Below, piece after piece: positions 1,405 through 52,786 of a stretch of DNA of 64,000 bases. Position numbers and translations under genes: made by a program. The notes below the pieces were generated by a model. The model was not told the origin of the DNA. It ran no database searches and worked only from the letters and a program-made list of their open reading frames with translations. Location: contig OZ024754.1 in the NCBI GenBank assembly GCA_964016885.1, positions 6,262,001 through 6,326,000 on the forward strand, given 5' to 3'. Source of the DNA: Eledone cirrhosa (Eukaryota). How positions within the stretch are numbered: the stretch's first letter is position 1; each line of letters begins with the position of its first letter.

Positions 1405-1872
1405 CTTCATAAAGGAACACAAGGAAGATTTAAACACTGGACCACGAGTCTTCACATCCTCGTAACACAAGGAAGATTTAACCACTGGGCCACGAGTCTT
1501 CACATCCTCATAACACAAGGAAGATTTAACAACTGGGCCATGAGACTTCACATCCTTGTAACACAAGGGAGATTTAAACACTGGGCCATGAGACTTCACA
1601 TCCTTGTAACACAAGGGAGATTTAAACACTGGGCCATGAGACTTCACATCCTCGTAACACAAGGGAGATTTAAACACTGGGCCATGAGACTTCACATCCT
1701 CGTAACACAAGGGAGATTTAAACACTGGGCCATGAGACTTCACATCCTTGTAACACAAGGAAGATTTAACCACTGGGCCATGAGACTTCACACCCTCATA
1801 AAGGAACCCAAGGACCAGGTTAACCACTGGGCCATGTGCCTTCACATCCTCATAACACAAGCAAGATTTACA
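1405..1872. repeat. 48-bp minisatellite abutting the CNOT4 donor site
   Basis: Unit ACACAAGGGAGATTTAAACACTGGGCCATGAGACTTCACATCCTTGTA, about 9-10 copies. Confidence 0.92.
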
Positions 1873-1875
1873 TAC

Positions 1876-1944
1876 CTGATAACCACATGTACAAGGGAAG
1901 AAATTTTTATCGTCTATTTCCAGAGGATCCATACATAGTGGACA
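1876..1944 (-). CDS. CNOT4: CCR4-NOT subunit 4 (E3 ligase) coding exon, N-terminal half of C4C4 RING
   Basis: Translates CPLCMDPLEIDDKNFFPCTCGYQ, near-identical to the recalled CNOT4 RING start (CPLCMEPLEIDDINFFPCTCGYQ). Flanked by acceptor TTTTCAG (AG at 1946-1945) and donor GTATGT (from 1875). 69 nt, phase 0/0. Confidence 0.93.
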
Positions 1945-3092: not shown

Positions 3093-3116
3093 CTCTATTT
3101 GATCTTCACCAGACAT
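3093..3116 (-). CDS. CNOT4: CNOT4 start-codon exon (exon 3093-3140, coding part MSGEDQIE)
   Basis: Pyrimidine tract TTTTCTTTCTGTTTCAG ends at 3141, ATG at 3116 in AATCATG context, 8 codons, then GAG|GTAAT donor. Phase 0 joins in frame to the RING exon. Confidence 0.82.
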
Positions 3117-40639: not shown

Positions 40640-42300
40640 TTCTAACAATGGTATTGGCCCCGTCATAAACAGGTGGATACCTGTGTGTATATATATATAT
40701 ATATAATTATACTTGTGCCAGTGTTCACCCAGTTGCAGCCAGTAAATCCATAACAGTGTGAAGAGAGGTTGACCATGTAGAGCAACTACAACCAACATAT
40801 GTGGAGATTTTCAATCATTAATGACTCCAACAGTGAGCACCACATATGTGAAGAACAACAAATATTAATTCAAGATCTAACTTAATTATGCCAACCCCCA
40901 TTTTCAGCTGTGCATCTTGTCACTCATGCCATCCCATGTGAGGCCCTGGGTTCGCTTCAAATAATAATCAAAGGAGATGCCTTTTGAATAGAATTTGTTT
41001 CAGCGACCCAATCCAGGAGTAATGTTGAATTTTGGACTTTGCCAACACACCAGCTCAGAAGATTTGGTGAAAGGGAAAAAATAGTAAAATACTCCAACTT
41101 GCATAGCTGCTCCATCATTATGTCACTCTCATTAGTTACATTTTGCAGCTCTACAGAAAGATGGTACAAATGAGTGGTCAGCAGATGAGAATTTTGGGGA
41201 CCAGATGTATATCTGACTTGGACAACAGCAGACTTTGGACATGACCGAATACAGTGTGTGTGTATAGTTACGGTAGATGTCTGTCGTATCCTTACCGTGG
41301 TTTATGGCAATGAAGGTAGTGCTAAGACTCTTGAATTGATCAACTTCTAAAACCTCATCACTGAGCATAACGGGATCCTTTCACAGGGCAACACAAGTGA
41401 ATACTACTATTTTTTATGGCTACATTAATTTTCATGCCAACATACGAAGTATACATAGTGAGGCCTTTAATAGCTGATTGAACTGATATATTTGTTGCCA
41501 ATTATCAAAAGGTCAGTCAGTGACAGTGAAGTCTCTTCCTTCAGTAGCATCCAAGTAATCCTTTACAGCAAGCTCTATGATCCAATCAATAGCGTAGTTA
41601 AAAAGTATTGAAGAAAGAAGAGCTCTGCCAGACACCTAAGTGAATTCCAAATGAGTCAAATTCCTCAACATAACAGCAAACCTTTGCTGATGGAGAGCTA
41701 TACCAGAGGAAGAACAGAGCTCTACCAGATACCTAAGTGAATTCCAAATGAGTCAAATTCCTCAACATAACAGCAAACCTTTGCTGATGGAGAGCTATAC
41801 CGGAGGAAGAACAGAGCTCTACCAGATACTTAAGTGAATTCCGAATGAGAGATTCCTCACCATAACAGCCAACCTTTGCTGATAGAGTGCTATACGGGAC
41901 AAAGAACAGATCCCTGCCAGACACCGAAGTGAATTTTAAATGAGAGATTTCTCACCATAATAGCCAACCTTTGTGACAGAGAGCTATACTATAGTCTAGT
42001 TAGATCCTGCAGTTTTAGGGGTAATCCACCTGCAATTGTCATGTTCTAGAATGTACGGCAATTGTTAGAAAATCCACTAATTTCTGACTCAAATGTTGTT
42101 CCAGAACCCTGCTCAAGGTGAACATTTGATCAGTGCAGGCTCAGCCTTGACAAAAGCCATACTGATTTGTTTGTATACATTGATCTCCATTCTAGAACGA
42201 TTGTGAACATCTTGGCTAGAACATCTATCATACTGATGCTGCAGTAGTTGGTACAAGAATGTTTATCACTCTTCTCAAAGAAAGGGAGAACTGCATCACT
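40640..42300 (-). pseudogene. decayed RTE-type reverse transcriptase ORF
   Basis: Fragments ISMIDVLAKMFTIVLE, LSSILFNYAIDWII and EVLEVDQFK in the expected RT order. Frameshifted, with an internal 97-bp tandem amplification at 41620-41990. Confidence 0.65.
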
Positions 42301-42766
42301 CCCAGACACAATCAAATACACAAACACACCTATGTGTAAGTGGTTGGCATTAGGAAGGGAATCGAACAACAGAAAACTTGCCAAACAAAAGGTGGAGGGG
42401 TCCCTTCATCTATGTGAAGGGCACAGCAACATACCTCTGTAGTTCTGGTGGCACGATAAAATGCACCCAATACACTTGGTAAAGTGGTTGGTGTTAAGAA
42501 GGGCATCTTACTGTAGAAAACTTGCTAAACATAACGTTCAGAGGACTCTTCAGTTGTGCCAAGGACACAACCTCCCTAGAACTGATGCCCCAATAAAATG
42601 TACCAATACATGCTAGAGTGTAAGAGCAAACATGAGATGTGGCCAGTAGCATGTCTGAGAACAGTAGTTCCAATTGACCACCAACTTGCTCATTGTGTGT
42701 GTATATATATATATATATTATTCAGAATATTAATCAATGAAGACATTCACATAATCAAAATATATG

Positions 42767-42828
42767 TTTTATTATATATATTTCGAAGGTACTGTGCTGT
42801 TTTTTCAGTACGTCCTCATCAGATAAAA
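42767..42828 (-). ncRNA. minimal type I hammerhead ribozyme motif (mirror copy)
   Basis: Minus strand reads TTTTAT-CTGATGA-GGACGTACTG-loop-CAGTACCTTC-GAAA-TATATATA-ATAAAA. Confidence 0.7.
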
Positions 42829-42913
42829 TACACGAATAGATGTATGACATACCTCAACAGTCTTGATGGTTTAATTCAAGACTGTTGAGGTATGTCATAC
42901 ATCAATTTATGTA

Positions 42914-42975
42914 TTTTATCTGACGAGGACGTACTGAAGAAACAGCACAGTACCTTCGAAATATATATAATAAAA
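42914..42975 (+). ncRNA. minimal type I hammerhead ribozyme motif
   Basis: Stem I TTTTAT/ATAAAA. Core CTGACGA (42920-42926). Stem II GGACGTACTG/CAGTACCTTC with one C-C mismatch. GAAA (42958-42961). 2-bp stem III with palindromic ATAT loop. NUH triplet AUA, predicted cut after 42969. Confidence 0.7.
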
Positions 42976-44125
42976 CATTTTGATTATGTGAATGTCTTCA
43001 TTTATTAATATTCTGAATAATATTAATAACTCCAGAAAACTTGACTAGAGTGCTTTTAATCTATTGTAAAATTATATTCATTGAGTAATCAATGAACCAT
43101 ATTAATCTTTGGTTATTTATATATACACACACACAACATTTTTATTTCTAGTTTATCATGTTTAACACCCCCATGAAGCTGAAATATCAATATATAGAAT
43201 TGGATGTCACCTATTTTGAATGAAAAACTGAAGGAAAAGGTCTACACTAAATGTGTGAGAAGTGCCACAATTTCTGGGAGTGAAACATGGGCAGAGAACA
43301 CACAGGAGCAGAGAGCAGAAATAAAACTGATTCACTGGATGAAGAGAAAGAGGAAGGCAAGCAAAGAATTGCAAAGGGTGAAGAGGAATAGAGCATCAGA
43401 CGAATGGTGTGAAAAGAAACGGAATGAGGATGAAGAGAAAGAGGAAGGCAAGCAATGAATTGCAAAGGGTGACGGGGAATAGAGCCTCAGACGAATGGTG
43501 TGAAAAGAAACAGAATGACGATGAGATGGCTGCGTTGTGTGTTGAGGAAGGATGAAAGTGACTGGGTTGAGAGGAGTGATGAAAGTGAAAGGAAGATCAA
43601 GAAAAACATGTCTAAAGATGGAGAAGAAAATAAAAGCCAAGAGGGTTACAAAGGATAAAGGAAAATGGAGAAATATATCATGGGGATTGAAAGTCCTTAG
43701 TAAGGAAACTGCCCTTAACTCTTTAGCATTTAAATCAGCCAGAATTCTCATATCTTTCTGTTCAAACTGGCTGTAACTGGGCGCTCCTAGCGACATTAAA
43801 ATCTCATAGATTCGATATTATGTGAGGTAAAGCCTTTACCACAAAAATACAATAGTATATATAGAGTAATGTAAGTACTAAAGGGTTAATATGCTTGTTT
43901 GCAATAACTTCCAAATTTACTAATTTTTCATTTGCAATGTTTATAAGAAATTCCCTCAAAACCAAGTAAACTTCAAGGCATCCAATCAGACCCACCAACA
44001 TTTCCACCAATCCTACGACCTGGACAGCTAATATACTTTATCGACCTTGAAAGATGAAAGGCATAGTTGATCTCCACTGTATTTCAACAGCTAGAGCACT
44101 GTCAGATACATTAACATATGGTGAT

Positions 44126-44174
<49 letters not shown>

Positions 44175-44368
44175 GGTGTGTGTGTGTATTGACATGTGTT
44201 AAAATGCGCGCGTGTGTGTGTATATATATATATATCATTTAATGTCCATTTTCCACGCTAGCGCAGGTTGTCCCATTAGGGGCAAGTAGGGTCAGGTGAC
44301 CGTGTCTTGCTCATATAGGACTATTTCTAGCTAGGTTTCTACGGCTGGATGCCCTTCCTAACGCCAAC

Positions 44369-44956
44369 CACATTTACAGTGTGGGCTGGGTGCTTTTTGT
44401 CGTGACTCTTACACGACCACTTTACAGTGTGGACTGGGTGCTTTTAGTCATGACTCTTACACGACCACTTTACAGTGTGGGCTGGGTGCTTTTTGTCGTG
44501 ACTCTTACATGACCACTTTACAGTGTGGACTGGGTGCTTTTTGTCGTGACTCTTACACGACCACTTTACAGTGTGGACTGGGTGCTTTTTGTCGTGACTC
44601 TTACACGACCACTTTACAGTGTGGACTGGGTGCTTTTTGTTGTGACACCTACATGATCACTTTACAGTGTGGACTGGGTGCTTTTTTTACCATGGCACCT
44701 CCATGACTACTTTACAGTGTCGGCTGGGTGCTTTTTGTTGTGACACCTACACGACCACTTAACAGTGTGGGCTGGGTGGTTTTTTTGTCGAGACACTTAC
44801 ATGACCACTTTACAGTGTGGGTGGGGGCTTTTAGTCATGACTCTTACATGACCACTTTACAGTGTGGGTGGGGGCTTTTAGTCATGACTCTTACATGACC
44901 ACTTTACAGTGTGAGCTGGGGGCTTTTTGTTGTGACACCTACACGACCACTTTACA
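44369..44956. repeat. 48-bp SINE-derived tandem array
   Basis: Unit CCACTTTACAGTGTGGACTGGGTGCTTTTTGTCGTGACTCTTACACGA, about 12 copies, attached to a minus-strand SINE 3' end at 44236-44370. Confidence 0.92.
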
Positions 44957-46903
44957 AGTCGATACAGGACCAAGTTGATTGGTGATGTGCCATAATACAA
45001 AAGACCCTTCCACCAGTACAAGCACTACAATACTAAAAGTAAACATGGTGAATGACCGAAGGGTACAGTGATTTGGCAATCAAAACAGATAGTATATTAT
45101 CTGGTCTAGCATGTGACAAACTCTTGTCCATATGTCACAATAAAATGCACCCAGTACGCCCTGTAAAGTGGAAGTCCTGGTGCCATGGACAAATTTCCCC
45201 AGTACAACCTTAGCATTCTTTAGAAAGGGTATACAGACTGTGTATATCTGTATATATGGATGTGTGCATCTGTCTCGTCATATCTTCATATGGACAGGGT
45301 TTAAAAGAAGTGGTGATATTTGTTTACATCTCAGCTTAGTGTTCAGACATAAGTTAATACTATAAACCACATTTAAACAGTAGGGGGTAGTGTCAGGAAG
45401 AGCATTCAGTCACAGAAGAAAAAAAGCCTTATTAAGTCACATTCCACCCATGTTAACATGGACAAATCAGTAATTATGATGACATATATACAAACATACA
45501 TCTACACACATATACACCCCAGCCAAATTTACAGTCCTCATCGGAGCAAGGTACCAGTGTGGTCAACTCTGGCCAGACTTGTCTCCCAACCTGAACGACC
45601 CGTCTAACCCATGCAAGCATGGAAAAAATGGTCTCTAAACGGTGATGATGATGCTGATGATACACACAAGTTTATACACTTATGTACATTCTGAAGGTAG
45701 TGTTCCAGTATGCCTAAAACAAACTACTGGACCACACACATGTCCAGCCCACTCTAAAGTGGTAGTGTTGGTTACTACGATAAAATGTAAACCAATACAC
45801 AGTGAAGTGGTTGGTGGTAGAAAGGACATCCAGATGTAAACATCACACCACACTGGAACGTATGAGCAAAAAGATGTGGTCATCTGACCTGACTCATCTC
45901 AGAGACTGACAAAACCTGTCCAACTTATGGCCGGCATGGAACACGGATGCAAAACGACGACGATGATGATGATGACGACGACGATATAAGCTGTTATTCC
46001 GTTGTGTCCATTTCGTCGTCTTAGAACGGGTGAGATGTAAAATCTATCTTTCCTGGATATGACGTTGACCTAATCATAGAAGACAATACGATTTACTGAG
46101 ACAAGATACAATATTTTACCTTTGGAAAACGACAGAACGCCCCCCATAAGACTTGAAACAGACGTACCATGAACACACAAGTTTCATAGATCAATGTAAT
46201 CTTCATTCGGCAATCGTCATAACAGACGAAATAAGTGTTTGAGTGGGTAGTGATGGAGAGATGGCGTTTCAAAACTCACATAGGCTAAACGGAGGCTATG
46301 TGTGTATTACACGAAGAAGAAAAAAAGAAAAATGTACCCAATACACTCTGTAAAGTGATTGGCATTTGATGGTACAGCATCCAGCTGTAGAAACCACGAC
46401 ATATGCAACCGAGGAGACCATTGAGTACTGACAATCTGTAACGACCCGTCCAACCCATGCCAAGAATTATGATCATATCTATATCTATATATAAAGAGAG
46501 AGAGAGACACACACATATATATGTATTTATATTCCGTCCTTATTACATATACGGATGTAATAGGCGACTAGCTCAACCATCAGCACATTGTCCTTGGAGC
46601 TTCGAAAAGCAATGTCACCCTCCACTGGATTTGAAACTAAACACAGTGGAATATCAAATTCGATGCAAGCTTTCGTAGTCATACATAGCAACATACACAC
46701 ACACACACACACACACACATATCTATTTATATATATATGGAGAGAGAGAGAGAGAGAGAGAGAGTACAGGAGTTGGGATAACGAGCTAATTAGAATGACC
46801 AACTGGGGGATCGAAACAGGACTGTCCAGAGCCTAGCTCCCCAGAAACTTTACTGTACAATATTGCCAACCTATATATCATATACGAACTAGGAAAGAAG
46901 TGC

Positions 46904-48905: not shown

Positions 48906-50275
48906 TTTTAATTAACCCTGTCTGACTCACTAACACCCGACAGAATAAACGAGTAGTAATAGCAATTAGAAATATGTACGGAACCTCCTTAGTGTCGGCC
49001 AGAAGTGTAATAGTAATAATAATAAGTATATGAACTATAGTGGCCGTCGTGAAGGGAGCAGTCAGTATGTATGGAAAGACCATGTTACAAACAAGCTGAA
49101 CACATCGATAATATATTACGATTGCTATTCAGCAGTTTACACATAATTATATATATATATATATATACATACATATATATTTATACATATACTTTCGTAA
49201 TCAGTTTAGACAGATATATATATATATATATATATTTGTGTGTGTGTGTGTAAATATATATATATATACATACATATTCACACATACAAAAGTGTACTAA
49301 TTGCAACTGGCTCCCGCCGTAGTGTATACGGTATAGTTAATATATATATATATATATGTATGTAAATATATAATGATTACTCCACCATTGGTATAATAAA
49401 TCCGTATATATATATATTTACAAACAATAGCAATATGAGAAAAAATAGAAACATTTCCTTCCTCCCTCGTTATCGATACAATACAGCAGAGTCTCTATAA
49501 ATATATACAAACATAAAACATTATCTGACATATAGTGTGTTTATATACATTATATATACATTTATAAGTGTATATATGTATGCATATATATATTTAATAT
49601 ATAAAGGTGTATCTATATATATGTATGTATAAAGACCTATGTATATATATCTACATAAAGATATGTGTATGTGCATATATATATATAAGTATAAGATGTT
49701 TGTGTGTAGATATATATATGTATATATAAAAGATGTGTGTAATATATATATATATATATATAAAAGATGTATGTGTGTAGATATATATATATAAAAGATG
49801 TGTGTAGATATATAGATATAAAAGATGTGTGTAGATATATAGATATAAAAGATGTGTGTAGATATATATATATATATATAAAAGATGTATGTGTGTAGAT
49901 ATATATATATATAAAAGATGTATGTGTGTAGATATATATAAAAGATGTATGTGTATATATATTATATATAAAAGATGTATGTATATATAAGATGTATGTA
50001 TATATATATATATATATACAAGAGATGTGAATATATATATATATAAAGAGATACAGAGTCAATACCCCCTTCTTCCTCTATAGATAGAATGAGACGTTGG
50101 TGGGGTAGCAAAAAGCGGAAAAGAAGACAAGCAAGCATAGTCAAGAGACATTATTAGCTTTAGAGATAAAAACCAACCCGAAGCTAACAAGACATCGACA
50201 CAGAAATACACATGAACATATAACGATGGTTAGGCTGTTAAAATGTATGTTTGATATTCGGACATTACACCTTAC

Positions 50276-50350
50276 CTACCTAAATATAAGGCCTGGCCCC
50301 AGAAAAAAGTTTTCCAGAAAATAGCTATTTACTGTTGATGCCTCAGCCAA
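50276..50350 (-). other. putative non-coding first exon of CNOT4 (5' boundary uncertain)
   Basis: Strong donor AG|GTAAGG at 50276/50275 just downstream of a CpG-rich patch. The link to CNOT4 is inferred, not shown. Confidence 0.45.
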
Positions 50351-50460
50351 AACAGGCACTGCGCAACTCGCCTGCGCAGACAGCGTCAACTCGACCGAAA
50401 AAAAAAATAACGTTTGCCAAATAGCCTTTAAAACCGAGCTACGGATGCTCAATCGCGACA
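50350..50460. promoter_or_regulatory. CpG-rich putative bidirectional promoter with NRF1-like TGCGCA motifs
   Basis: TGCGCA at 50360-50365 and CGCCTGCGCA ending 50378, local CpG excess, outward-facing splice donors on both sides. Confidence 0.55.
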
Positions 50461-50511
50461 TAAACTACAAAGGGAAATAATCCAGGGGGAGGAGGCGTTT
50501 GGCAAGAAGGC
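50400..50511 (+). other. putative first exon of a divergent plus-strand transcript
   Basis: GTAAGT donor at 50512-50517 followed by T-rich, intron-like sequence. No downstream exon recognised. Confidence 0.35.
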
Positions 50512-52786
50512 GTAAGTTATAAATTAACAAGGGAGCGTTCGTTAATTTCACATATGTCCTTCCTTTCCTTCTTTTTTATTACATTTTTGTGTTGTTTTCT
50601 GTTTATTTGTTGGTTGGTTGTTTTTTTTGTTTCTGTTCCCCCTCCATCCCCGCTTTTTTTTTTTTTACCTCCTCACAAATAATTGTTATTTCTCGTTTTC
50701 TTGGTAATATCGGTAATGTGTATATCGCTCGCTTTTTTTTTTTTTTTTAAATATTTCCTTTGCTGTGTCTTGTCTTGTCATCTTAATATTTCATCATCAT
50801 CATCATCAGAGAGAGAAAGAAAGATAGACAAAGAAAATATTTCTTGCTTTTTTTTTTTTTTATTTTTAACACCTCCCCATATCTCTCTCTCTCTCCACCC
50901 CGATTAGTTTATGAAACTCAAACTAACATACTCCCGGGGAGCTTAAAAAAAAACACACACACAAAAAAGACAAAAAACACAAGCAGAAACACACACAAGA
51001 AAAAAAAAATAGCACGATTTTGTTGTTTTTTTTACCGACGTTGTTTTTTCCAGGAATGTCATCTTAGAAGTGAATCTAAAATTGCAAATGTTCGGTGACA
51101 TGACGATGGTAATAATGGTATTTTATGTAGAAACAGTAGAACGCAGTACTGTACTAGATGCCCCCCTTGTCTCTCTTACTTTCTAGGTTCAAATCAAACC
51201 ATCATTATGTTATTGTTTCTTCTCTTCATCTCTTACCCACAACGAAGTACATACAGTAAATATATACCAATAGTAGTTATTCTGTACAACCACTCAACTT
51301 AAATCGCTTATTTTTCTCCTCTACAAATATGTCAACAAACGAAATCATTTTGCCCCTATCTCTTCTGTTTTGTTTGTTTCTATTTAAAAGGCGTTTGGTT
51401 TTGGTCGAGAATGCATGCGCTTCGTTGCTACAATATTTAGTTTCATGCTATGGTTATGGTTATTCAGTTCAAATCTCGACTATATTTTTACTATTTTATT
51501 TTTTTTACACATAAATGTCATTTTTTTTTTCGGCGTTGATAATTGATAAAGTAACTATCAATCACACACTGGAATTGGTTCTAGTCAACTATAGAATATC
51601 CCTTGTAAGTTACTCAAAAGAAACCATTACAAGCTTTAGATTCAAAATAAAAAAAGAGAACGTTATATATATGTGTATATATATATAAAAGAATGAACAA
51701 CGGGATTATACATCCATATATATATATATATATAACAAATTTAATATAGAAATTTAAATTTGTTGTTTACACTCTACTAATGGATTGAGTACCTTACTTA
51801 CTGTGGTTACCCCCGATTGAACCCGGGATTCCTATATATATATATTACATTCTTCATGTTTAGATAATGCAATCTTCTAAATTTTATTGTTCTGGGTATT
51901 ATATTATGACATGTGCAAATTCTTTTGGAGGAAAAAAAAGTTATTTGCTGCCAACATTCCAGCATTAAAAATGCTTGATGGTGGTGAGTTCCGTTGTTTT
52001 TTTGGGGTCACTAAGACATGACTTGAAGACGTTGGTCAAACTGACATATCTTACGTGAAGACAAGAATTCAGCTACACCTGCCATTGGTATTGAACACTG
52101 GCATAGAATGGCAGCTGAAGAAATGTCCTCAATTGTTTAATATCCGTTTTCCTTGCTAGCAAAGATTGGACATGTCACCACAGACAGGTCAGAACTTAGA
52201 CAGATTCTCTGACCTTCAGGTGGGTCATGGATCTGACATATTACACCATGTAAGTGCATTTAATCATGCCACCAACACCAAGTTGTCATGTCCTGGGCAT
52301 AGCTAAAGAGTTCCCCGCACTTTGTTTGGCAGGTTTTCTATTGCTCGGAGATCAATGAGTCACTCTAGGTAGTACGGCTATTTCTCCGAATCAAGAGATC
52401 ACAGCTCCAATATTACAGACGTGGTTAAAATGTCTAAGGAAAGAAGAATCACTGGACATATGTCATGGGTAAAGCCAGCCACCAGGAGACCCAGTGGTAG
52501 ACCAAAAGCAAGATGGTTGGTCTTACTTGAGGATAGTCAGATTAATTGAAGATGGTTTCTTATGATAAAACTCTCTGGAAGATGTGTCTGAGGACATGAC
52601 CCCTCTGATCCTCCCAGGAATAAGTGGAAGAAGCACAAGTGGTTGGCATTAGAAAGGGCATCAAGCCATAGAAACTATGCTCCCGGTACAGCATGGGTTC
52701 TATGGCTTCATGCCCTTTCTAATGTCAATCACTACAGCACCTACTAGGAGCTTTTTATCATGACTCCAGCATTACCACCTTACACC

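Follow-up and report, generated by a model that had tools for sequence, protein, structure and literature searches.

Inverted pLTRs that carry a ribozyme on each strand and a tail on one side only have already been published for Penelope-like elements (PLEs). In the Hydra clade of C-terminal EN+ PLEs, Penelope-13_HM is listed as having a 5'-truncated inverted copy and a ribozyme on both strands (Craig et al. 2021, PMC8557442), and in vitro work on Poseidon from Anolis reveals that the PAc protein, a predicted dimer, cuts and extends both target strands with uncut RNA as the template (Frangieh et al. 2024, PMC11167929). The inverted structures, the tail, and the microsatellite bias are called unresolved in the accessible PLE literature. 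The fold-back described here, from the genome of Eledone cirrhosa, belongs to a family that resembles Hydra-clade PLEs (Penelope-13_HM and Hydra-1_Obim) in its ORF motifs, its (TA)n target, and a sense-strand hammerhead near the 3' end (PMC8557442). It is probably a single, likely dead insertion of a PLE with Hydra-type motifs, in which two leader copies lie back to back in (TA)n and were likely made as two separate cDNAs at insertion.

The fold-back lies in the window, i.e., the whole 64-kb stretch of DNA that was analyzed, and consists of two divergent arms (42717-42877 and 42876-43021) that meet at 42876-42877. The arms align with each other over ~150 nt with 6 substitutions and one 4-nt indel, and the hairpin 42715-43025 has a predicted free energy of -215.6 kcal/mol. 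Only the right arm continues into a 92-nt tail (43022-43113), the sequence of which is absent from the left arm, and both ends of the fold-back run into (TA)n within a (TG)n(TA)n(CA)n repeat. A pattern scan for type I hammerheads on both strands of the window found exactly two sites, one per arm, with cores at 42920 (plus strand) and 42822 (minus strand) and predicted cuts after 42969 and 42773, respectively; the two motifs differ only at N7 and at one base of loop II. Consistent with the initial annotation, the arm alignment and the scan thus reveal a fold-back with a hammerhead in each ~150-bp arm, intact cores, and no further difference within the motif. The span given there (42715..43115) includes the inverted arms but also takes in the tail carried by one of them. 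The focal copy has neither the TATA-like nor the Inr-like motif of the family. The features are as follows.

42693-42716: left target flank, (TG)n(TA)n
42717-42877, minus strand: short arm, an inverted leader copy (+14 to +170 from the inferred RNA start) without the tail, ending in (TA)n
42767-42828, minus strand: type I hammerhead motif of the left arm, core start 42822, predicted cut between 42773 and 42772
42876-42877: inversion junction, a 2-nt overlap absent from the other 34 pairs examined
42876-43021, plus strand: long arm, leader +25 to +170 (pLTR part)
42890-42895, plus strand: candidate splice donor, GTATGT at +39, kept in sister families
42914-42975, plus strand: type I hammerhead motif of the right arm, predicted cut after 42969
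42914-42919 and 42970-42975, plus strand: stem I of the right arm; core at 42920-42926 and 42958-42961
42927-42957, plus strand: stem II of the right arm with a conserved C.C mismatch; stem III is a 2-bp palindromic stem
43022-43113, plus strand: tail (+171 to +263), which is 5' UTR upstream of the ORF start in tandem elements
43029-43054, plus strand: first copy of the RCTC...GAGY motif, 7 nt past the short end
Second copy of the RCTC...GAGY motif: just past the tail end in full elements, not within the window
43114-43136: right target flank, (TA)n(CA)n, a microsatellite that hides any target-site duplication

The core elements CUGANGA, GAAA, and NUH are intact in both arms. A search of 41000-45000 against Rfam (E ≤ 1) returned no hammerhead family and only sub-threshold miRNA models on palindromes; therefore, the hammerhead call rests on the core and on covariation. 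The covariation set comprised 20 motifs from the focal and sister families, which are related sequences and were picked without a pairing requirement. The core is invariant in 20 of 20 sister-family sequences, which is partly imposed by the search pattern, and in stems I and II 94.7% of the cells are paired, with 12 of 17 pairs changed on both sides. None of 500 shuffles reached this pairing and slid controls gave 38 to 56%, although kinship among the sequences prevents these values from being read as a probability. The compensatory stem changes indicate that selection acted on the hammerhead motif in the lineage of the element. In the focal family itself, however, the core is no better kept than its neighbors (variation of 0.026 at core positions compared with 0.031 at other positions). 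With the core intact in 59 of 74 full arms, two intact cores are what would be expected of a young copy, and any special meaning of them is not supported. Thus, both motifs are found by pattern but not by the Rfam hammerhead models, and the conservation anticipated in the initial annotation is seen as stem covariation across sister families but not as a better-kept core in the focal family.

The short palindromic stem III is predicted to form an 8-bp intermolecular duplex between two copies (-4.6 kcal/mol), and the predicted ribozyme fold of a monomer lies 4 to 8 kcal/mol above the minimum-energy fold. The monomer is therefore predicted to be unstable, and a dimer via stem III is possible. Together with the core and the stem covariation, the predicted duplex agrees with the earlier description of a type I hammerhead with a short stem III. 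It had also been proposed that the antisense arm is made first whichever strand is transcribed; this holds, and in the full hairpin of either strand the ribozyme fold would cost ~85 kcal/mol, so that the hairpin is predicted to exclude it.

An exact 31-mer of the hammerhead motif has 748 matches in the genome and its reversed control has none, which indicates that the fold-back is not a chance structure. The genome holds at least 748 arms of this kind, the focal ones included. A search of the 3.0-Gb genome with one arm yielded 1,589 candidates, 40 of which were scored, and the near-full matches share 93 to 100% identity. The ribozyme region of a third family, used as a query, returned no match, probably because AT-rich words are skipped. 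The loci analyzed are the best 30 of 40 scored among 862 to 1,589 candidates per search and not a random sample, so young copies are favored in the family counts. The focal arms differ at 6 of 146 positions, compared with a family mean of 4.6 (31 pairs), and the focal locus is likely an ordinary, dead copy among hundreds. A further fold-back of the same family (L014, C14:6356770-6357184) lies ~52 kb from the focal one, and fold-backs have been duplicated along with their flanks in two cases (L004/L021 and L010/L011).

Longer genomic copies found with the arm lead into ~1.1 kb of AT-rich 3' UTR and then into disrupted frames that carry RT and GIY-YIG-type motifs, in line with the PLE pLTR origin that the initial annotation had proposed. 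In L066, a partial tandem, the pLTR is followed by the same 92-nt tail and then by ~50 nt to an ATG, which indicates that the following unit has the tail as its 5' UTR. A protein search for the parent ORF gave 51,051 candidates, 131 of which were scored. The parent ORFs carry RWR (L066 and L102), DKT (L094, L099, L100, and L102) or DKA (L066), in agreement with the RWK/DKT signature, as well as YRDD, CxCX5C, CxxCxxE, and CxH, and CCHH is absent from them by eye. RT motifs precede C-terminal GIY-YIG-type motifs in a single ORF; among the aligned proteins, YxDD occurs in 43/43 and a GIY-YIG-like motif in 40/43, and both are also present in the family's own copies. The CxCX5C linker and the CxxC and CxH around E and N are present in frames of L062, L072, and L064; in the alignment CxCX5C, CxxC, and CxH occur in 40, 40, and 41 of the 43 proteins, and the Neptune-type linker occurs in none. 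These ORF features define the Hydra clade (PMC8557442), and the (TA)n insertion and canonical HHR of the focal family also agree with it. The distance from pLTR to pLTR, 3.85 kb in L066 and 3.39 kb in a tandem on C3, exceeds the <3 kb of the clade, although "generally under 3 kb" is a general, nondiagnostic feature in the same source (PMC8557442). The 189 homologues of the parent protein (E ≤ 1e-10) include coral, bryozoan, and Argonauta proteins, and their profile matches a retron RT (E of 0.007). Pfam detected neither RT nor GIY-YIG in parent ORF pieces from the family's own copies, and no intact ORF of the exact focal family was found among the loci read; a 935-amino-acid frame in L093 was rejected as an intact parent, since the start of a PLE RT is joined there via an (ATT)n run to the RT of another retroelement. 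Judging from motifs and a by-eye comparison with the published alignment, the parent is a PLE with Hydra-clade motifs. The element family is new and its kind is already known. Asparagine-rich low-complexity stretches occur in the RT-EN linker of the parent ORF (L062, L072, and L094), and fragments of a second PLE type (Pfam GIY-YIG match, E of 3e-4) adjoin family copies in L016 (2496-3149) and L064.

With leader positions counted from the A of the TCACT motif (+1), the outer arm ends are fixed at +170 or +263. Exactly one tail is present in 25 of 25 divergent pairs from loci that were not selected for tails, a count from which overlapping or refetched loci were dropped (L010/L011 are one duplication). 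One tail was also found in seven of eight pairs of the sister family, the eighth having none, and two tails occurred in 1 of 17 pairs of a tail-selected set. The tail is found on the long or the short copy alike. Distinct centers were found in 34 of 35 closely joined pairs, which indicates that a new fold-back forms with every insertion and that the structure does not propagate itself.

In 15 of 35 pairs, the arm that extends further 5' ends precisely at +1, and in 25 of 35 it ends between -3 and +4 (long-armed pairs are outside this count); solo arms likewise stop at +1. This position is 32 nt below the start of TATATAAA in the focal family, and six arms of the sister family stop at the homologous base (0 to +3), 33 nt below its TATATAAA. 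Exact genome matches fall from 353 for +1 to +24 to 192 for -10 to +14; on C1 and C2 alone the same step is only 80 versus 69, and part of the step may be mutation. Outside these two largest contigs, leader-only copies seem to be relatively commoner (273 versus 123). A G precedes +1 in 7 of the 15 exact stops (P = 0.006 against composition and 0.20 against equal odds), which weakly supports a cap signature. Ribozyme structure as a stop for the RT was rejected, as +1 sits ~59 nt upstream of stem I.

Minor alleles are shared between the arms of a pair 29 times across 31 pairs, compared with 5.6 ± 2.1 expected (0 of 5,000 permutations), fitting either one template or later conversion between arms. 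One template does not explain six pairs that are discordant for the common A allele at +32. At this position (42883 in the window) there are three common alleles, C, T, and A, which are often discordant within one insertion. The scissile bond lies within 20 of the 21 new tail arms, which indicates that the templates were uncut. Cut-RNA templates were rejected because only L127 of these arms begins at the cut-site region, in a TA run that makes the start ambiguous. In L127 (1380-1650), the tail arm starts beside the ribozyme end of a different family and is a possible cut-RNA copy. The donor-like GTATGT at +39 is conserved across families, and its position resembles that of the 5' intron of Drosophila virilis Penelope; a YAG acceptor is present in L066, L077, L090, L091, L092, L088, and L102 and is not clear in L099, L100, and L104.

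Each outer end is followed ~5 to 8 nt later by an RCTC-loop-GAGY motif. The search pattern permitted either pairing and retrieved 39 instances: 26 are ACTC/GAGT, 7 are GCTC/GAGC, none is ACTC/GAGC, and 6 have single changes. The ACTC/GAGT form follows the short end and the GCTC/GAGC form precedes the ATG, and the spacing is maintained even in L105 and L107, which represent the most distant families encountered. Visual inspection revealed a similar GCTC...GAGCAC hairpin directly 3' of the ribozyme in Hydra-2_Amil, a coral element. From this arrangement we infer that the motifs may set the priming sites.

In the two-cDNA reading that we favor, the transcript would start at +1, below the TATA-like box of an upstream pLTR, as suggested by motifs and end positions. 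The element protein would then nick both strands of the (TA)n target, and one target end would prime at +170 and the other at +263, each site being set by the RNA motif 5 to 8 nt further 3'. Both cDNAs would run through the uncut ribozyme to the 5' end of the RNA, and their 3' ends would be trimmed and joined via microhomology or a few added bases. The ribozyme would function for the parent element, with dimerization or assistance from a protein as the likely route to activity; in the focal copy it would be carried along as a passenger, and any transcript of the intron is predicted to trap it within the hairpin.

Alternatively, the same element could have gained its second arm by self-priming, in which cDNA or antisense RNA folds back and is copied, with the tail asymmetry arising from nuclease trimming at one end. 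Self-priming has been proposed for the head-to-head pLTRs of rotifer Penelope elements (PMC3846280), it accounts for allele sharing within pairs and for one tail per pair, and short inverted repeats in the first 30 nt of the leader are used at several junctions. However, the template arm should then always be the tail arm and reach further 5', whereas the further-reaching arm carries the tail in 18 pairs and is the short arm in 17 (six with split arms), and in the sister family the short arm reaches as far or further in seven of seven one-tail pairs. Asymmetric opening of a snap-back hairpin could also randomize which arm reaches further. Many junctions have added bases and no loop, and the solo arms stop at +1 too. 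Self-priming is therefore considered unlikely.

That the fold-back is itself a nonautonomous mobile unit, MITE-like or retrozyme-like and transcribed and copied whole, was suggested by the initial annotation and fits the hundreds of similar-sized fold-backs; the first 100 of the listed 31-mer matches include 15 divergent pairs. Whole-unit copying is largely refuted, however, by the distinct centers, by spacers that range from none to >3 kb, and by the lack of promoter-like motifs in the focal copy; in addition, no head-to-tail short monomers were found among the loci read, and A>G is not above T>C in the copies (0.0058 versus 0.0070). We regard such a unit as very improbable. Two known classes were rejected as well: a non-LTR retrozyme, since head-to-tail tandem monomers each with an HHR are not seen among the loci read, and a MITE, since uniform copies and a fixed internal sequence are lacking, the centers differ, the ends are asymmetric, and the parent is a retroelement.

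Recruitment of the focal copy by the host, with the hairpin or ribozyme regulating CNOT4 pre-mRNA via editing, small RNAs, or conditional cleavage, also has very little probability. The following candidate host features were identified in the window.

1837-1944, minus strand: zf-RING_4 (CNOT4-type) exon
3093-3116: short candidate first coding exon
50272-50420, minus strand: candidate promoter, 5' UTR exon, and donor, from the sequence only

The RING exon and the candidate exons and promoter near 50.3 kb suggest that the element is probably in a long CNOT4 5' intron; an intron of ~47 kb, in which the antisense arm would be read first, is plausible if the 50.3-kb exon belongs to CNOT4. The likely intronic position and the near-perfect 150-bp duplex predicted on either strand, which could be an ADAR or Dicer substrate as the initial annotation had proposed, are what recruitment would call for, but the divergence of the arms and the intact cores are ordinary for the family and the same geometry is present in all such copies, so nothing marks the focal copy as recruited. 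Other features of this region include a candidate bidirectional promoter at 50272-50520, where both strands have donor-like sites, and a 175-bp element at 43715-43889, bounded by TTAA and with 8-bp inverted ends, which has very high depth in all four runs and joints that go back 55 to 61 nt; we presume it to be similar to a piggyBac-type miniature element. A palindrome at 44111-44202, in which short unique arms flank (CA)n(TA)n(TG)n, has many sub-threshold matches to miRNA models, and tandem repeats occur at 41619-41994 (95 to 97 bp), 43337-43518 (91 bp), and 44373-44600 (48 bp).

Finally, an assembly artefact due to a chimeric inverted read has a negligible probability, since, although no single run X1 contig spans the fold-back, its arms differ and only one has the tail, the anatomy repeats at dozens of loci, and X1 contigs agree without difference with the unique sequence on either side (X1 possibly derives from the source sample). 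Reads of X1, X4, X5, and X6, which are mostly from other copies and give no flank coverage in the RAD runs, contain no joint that bypasses the entire element.

We propose tentatively, as a possibility that is more doubtful than the two-cDNA origin itself, that in Hydra-type PLEs two copies of an RNA hairpin motif in the leader seat the subunits of an RT-nuclease dimer at the two start sites, where each would extend one cut (TA)n end by copying the same unspliced RNA as far as its capped 5' terminus. The tail and the inverted head-to-head arrangement would then follow from a single rule, as would the retention of introns by these elements if both sites lie in an intron that begins at the +39 donor. 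No paper stating a two-cDNA origin, a start-site stop, or a repeated motif for PLE inversions was found in a literature in which subscription journals are incompletely covered. The family is a natural record of PLE insertion, and the fixed start sites, the adjoining repeated motif, the one-tail rule, and the +1 stop yield exact predictions for the existing in vitro assay. Such stubs risk being misfiled as MITEs or host intronic ribozymes.

Compared with known systems, the focal family is distinct from Hydra-1_Obim, which is a different family with an unlike ribozyme sequence. Hydra-clade PLEs generally have a unit of <3 kb and a tail of 30 to 40 nt, whereas the focal family has a unit of 3.4 to 3.9 kb and a 92-nt tail, and many of its insertions are leader-only fold-backs (PMC8557442). 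Pairs of minimal HHRs in PLEs of Schistosoma mansoni are, like the focal pair, type I hammerheads on opposite strands, 100 to 700 bp apart, with a long stem II and a palindromic stem III region (Cervera and de la Pena 2014, PMC4209133). Unlike them, the focal motif combines a 6-bp stem I and a short stem III with a conserved C.C mismatch in stem II after 3 bp. Non-LTR retrozymes (bioRxiv 10.64898/2026.07.22.740005) share with the focal fold-back a type I hammerhead, a PLE origin, and a noncoding nature; however, they are head-to-tail tandem units, whereas the focal copy is an inverted insertion that was made once.

The Penelope elements of Adineta vaga are similar to the focal family in having head-to-head pLTRs with the tail on one of them, a pLTR with a TATA box and a TCACT Inr-like motif, and asparagine-rich inserts in the ORF (PMC3846280). 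Self-priming on antisense RNA was proposed for them, but the end statistics of the focal family fit two cDNAs better. As in the focal family, Poseidon PAc uses two internal start sites that bound the tail in vitro (PMC11167929). The PAc start sites lie 111 to 118 nt inside the ORF, whereas those of the focal family are both in the 5' UTR, each before a copy of the repeated motif.
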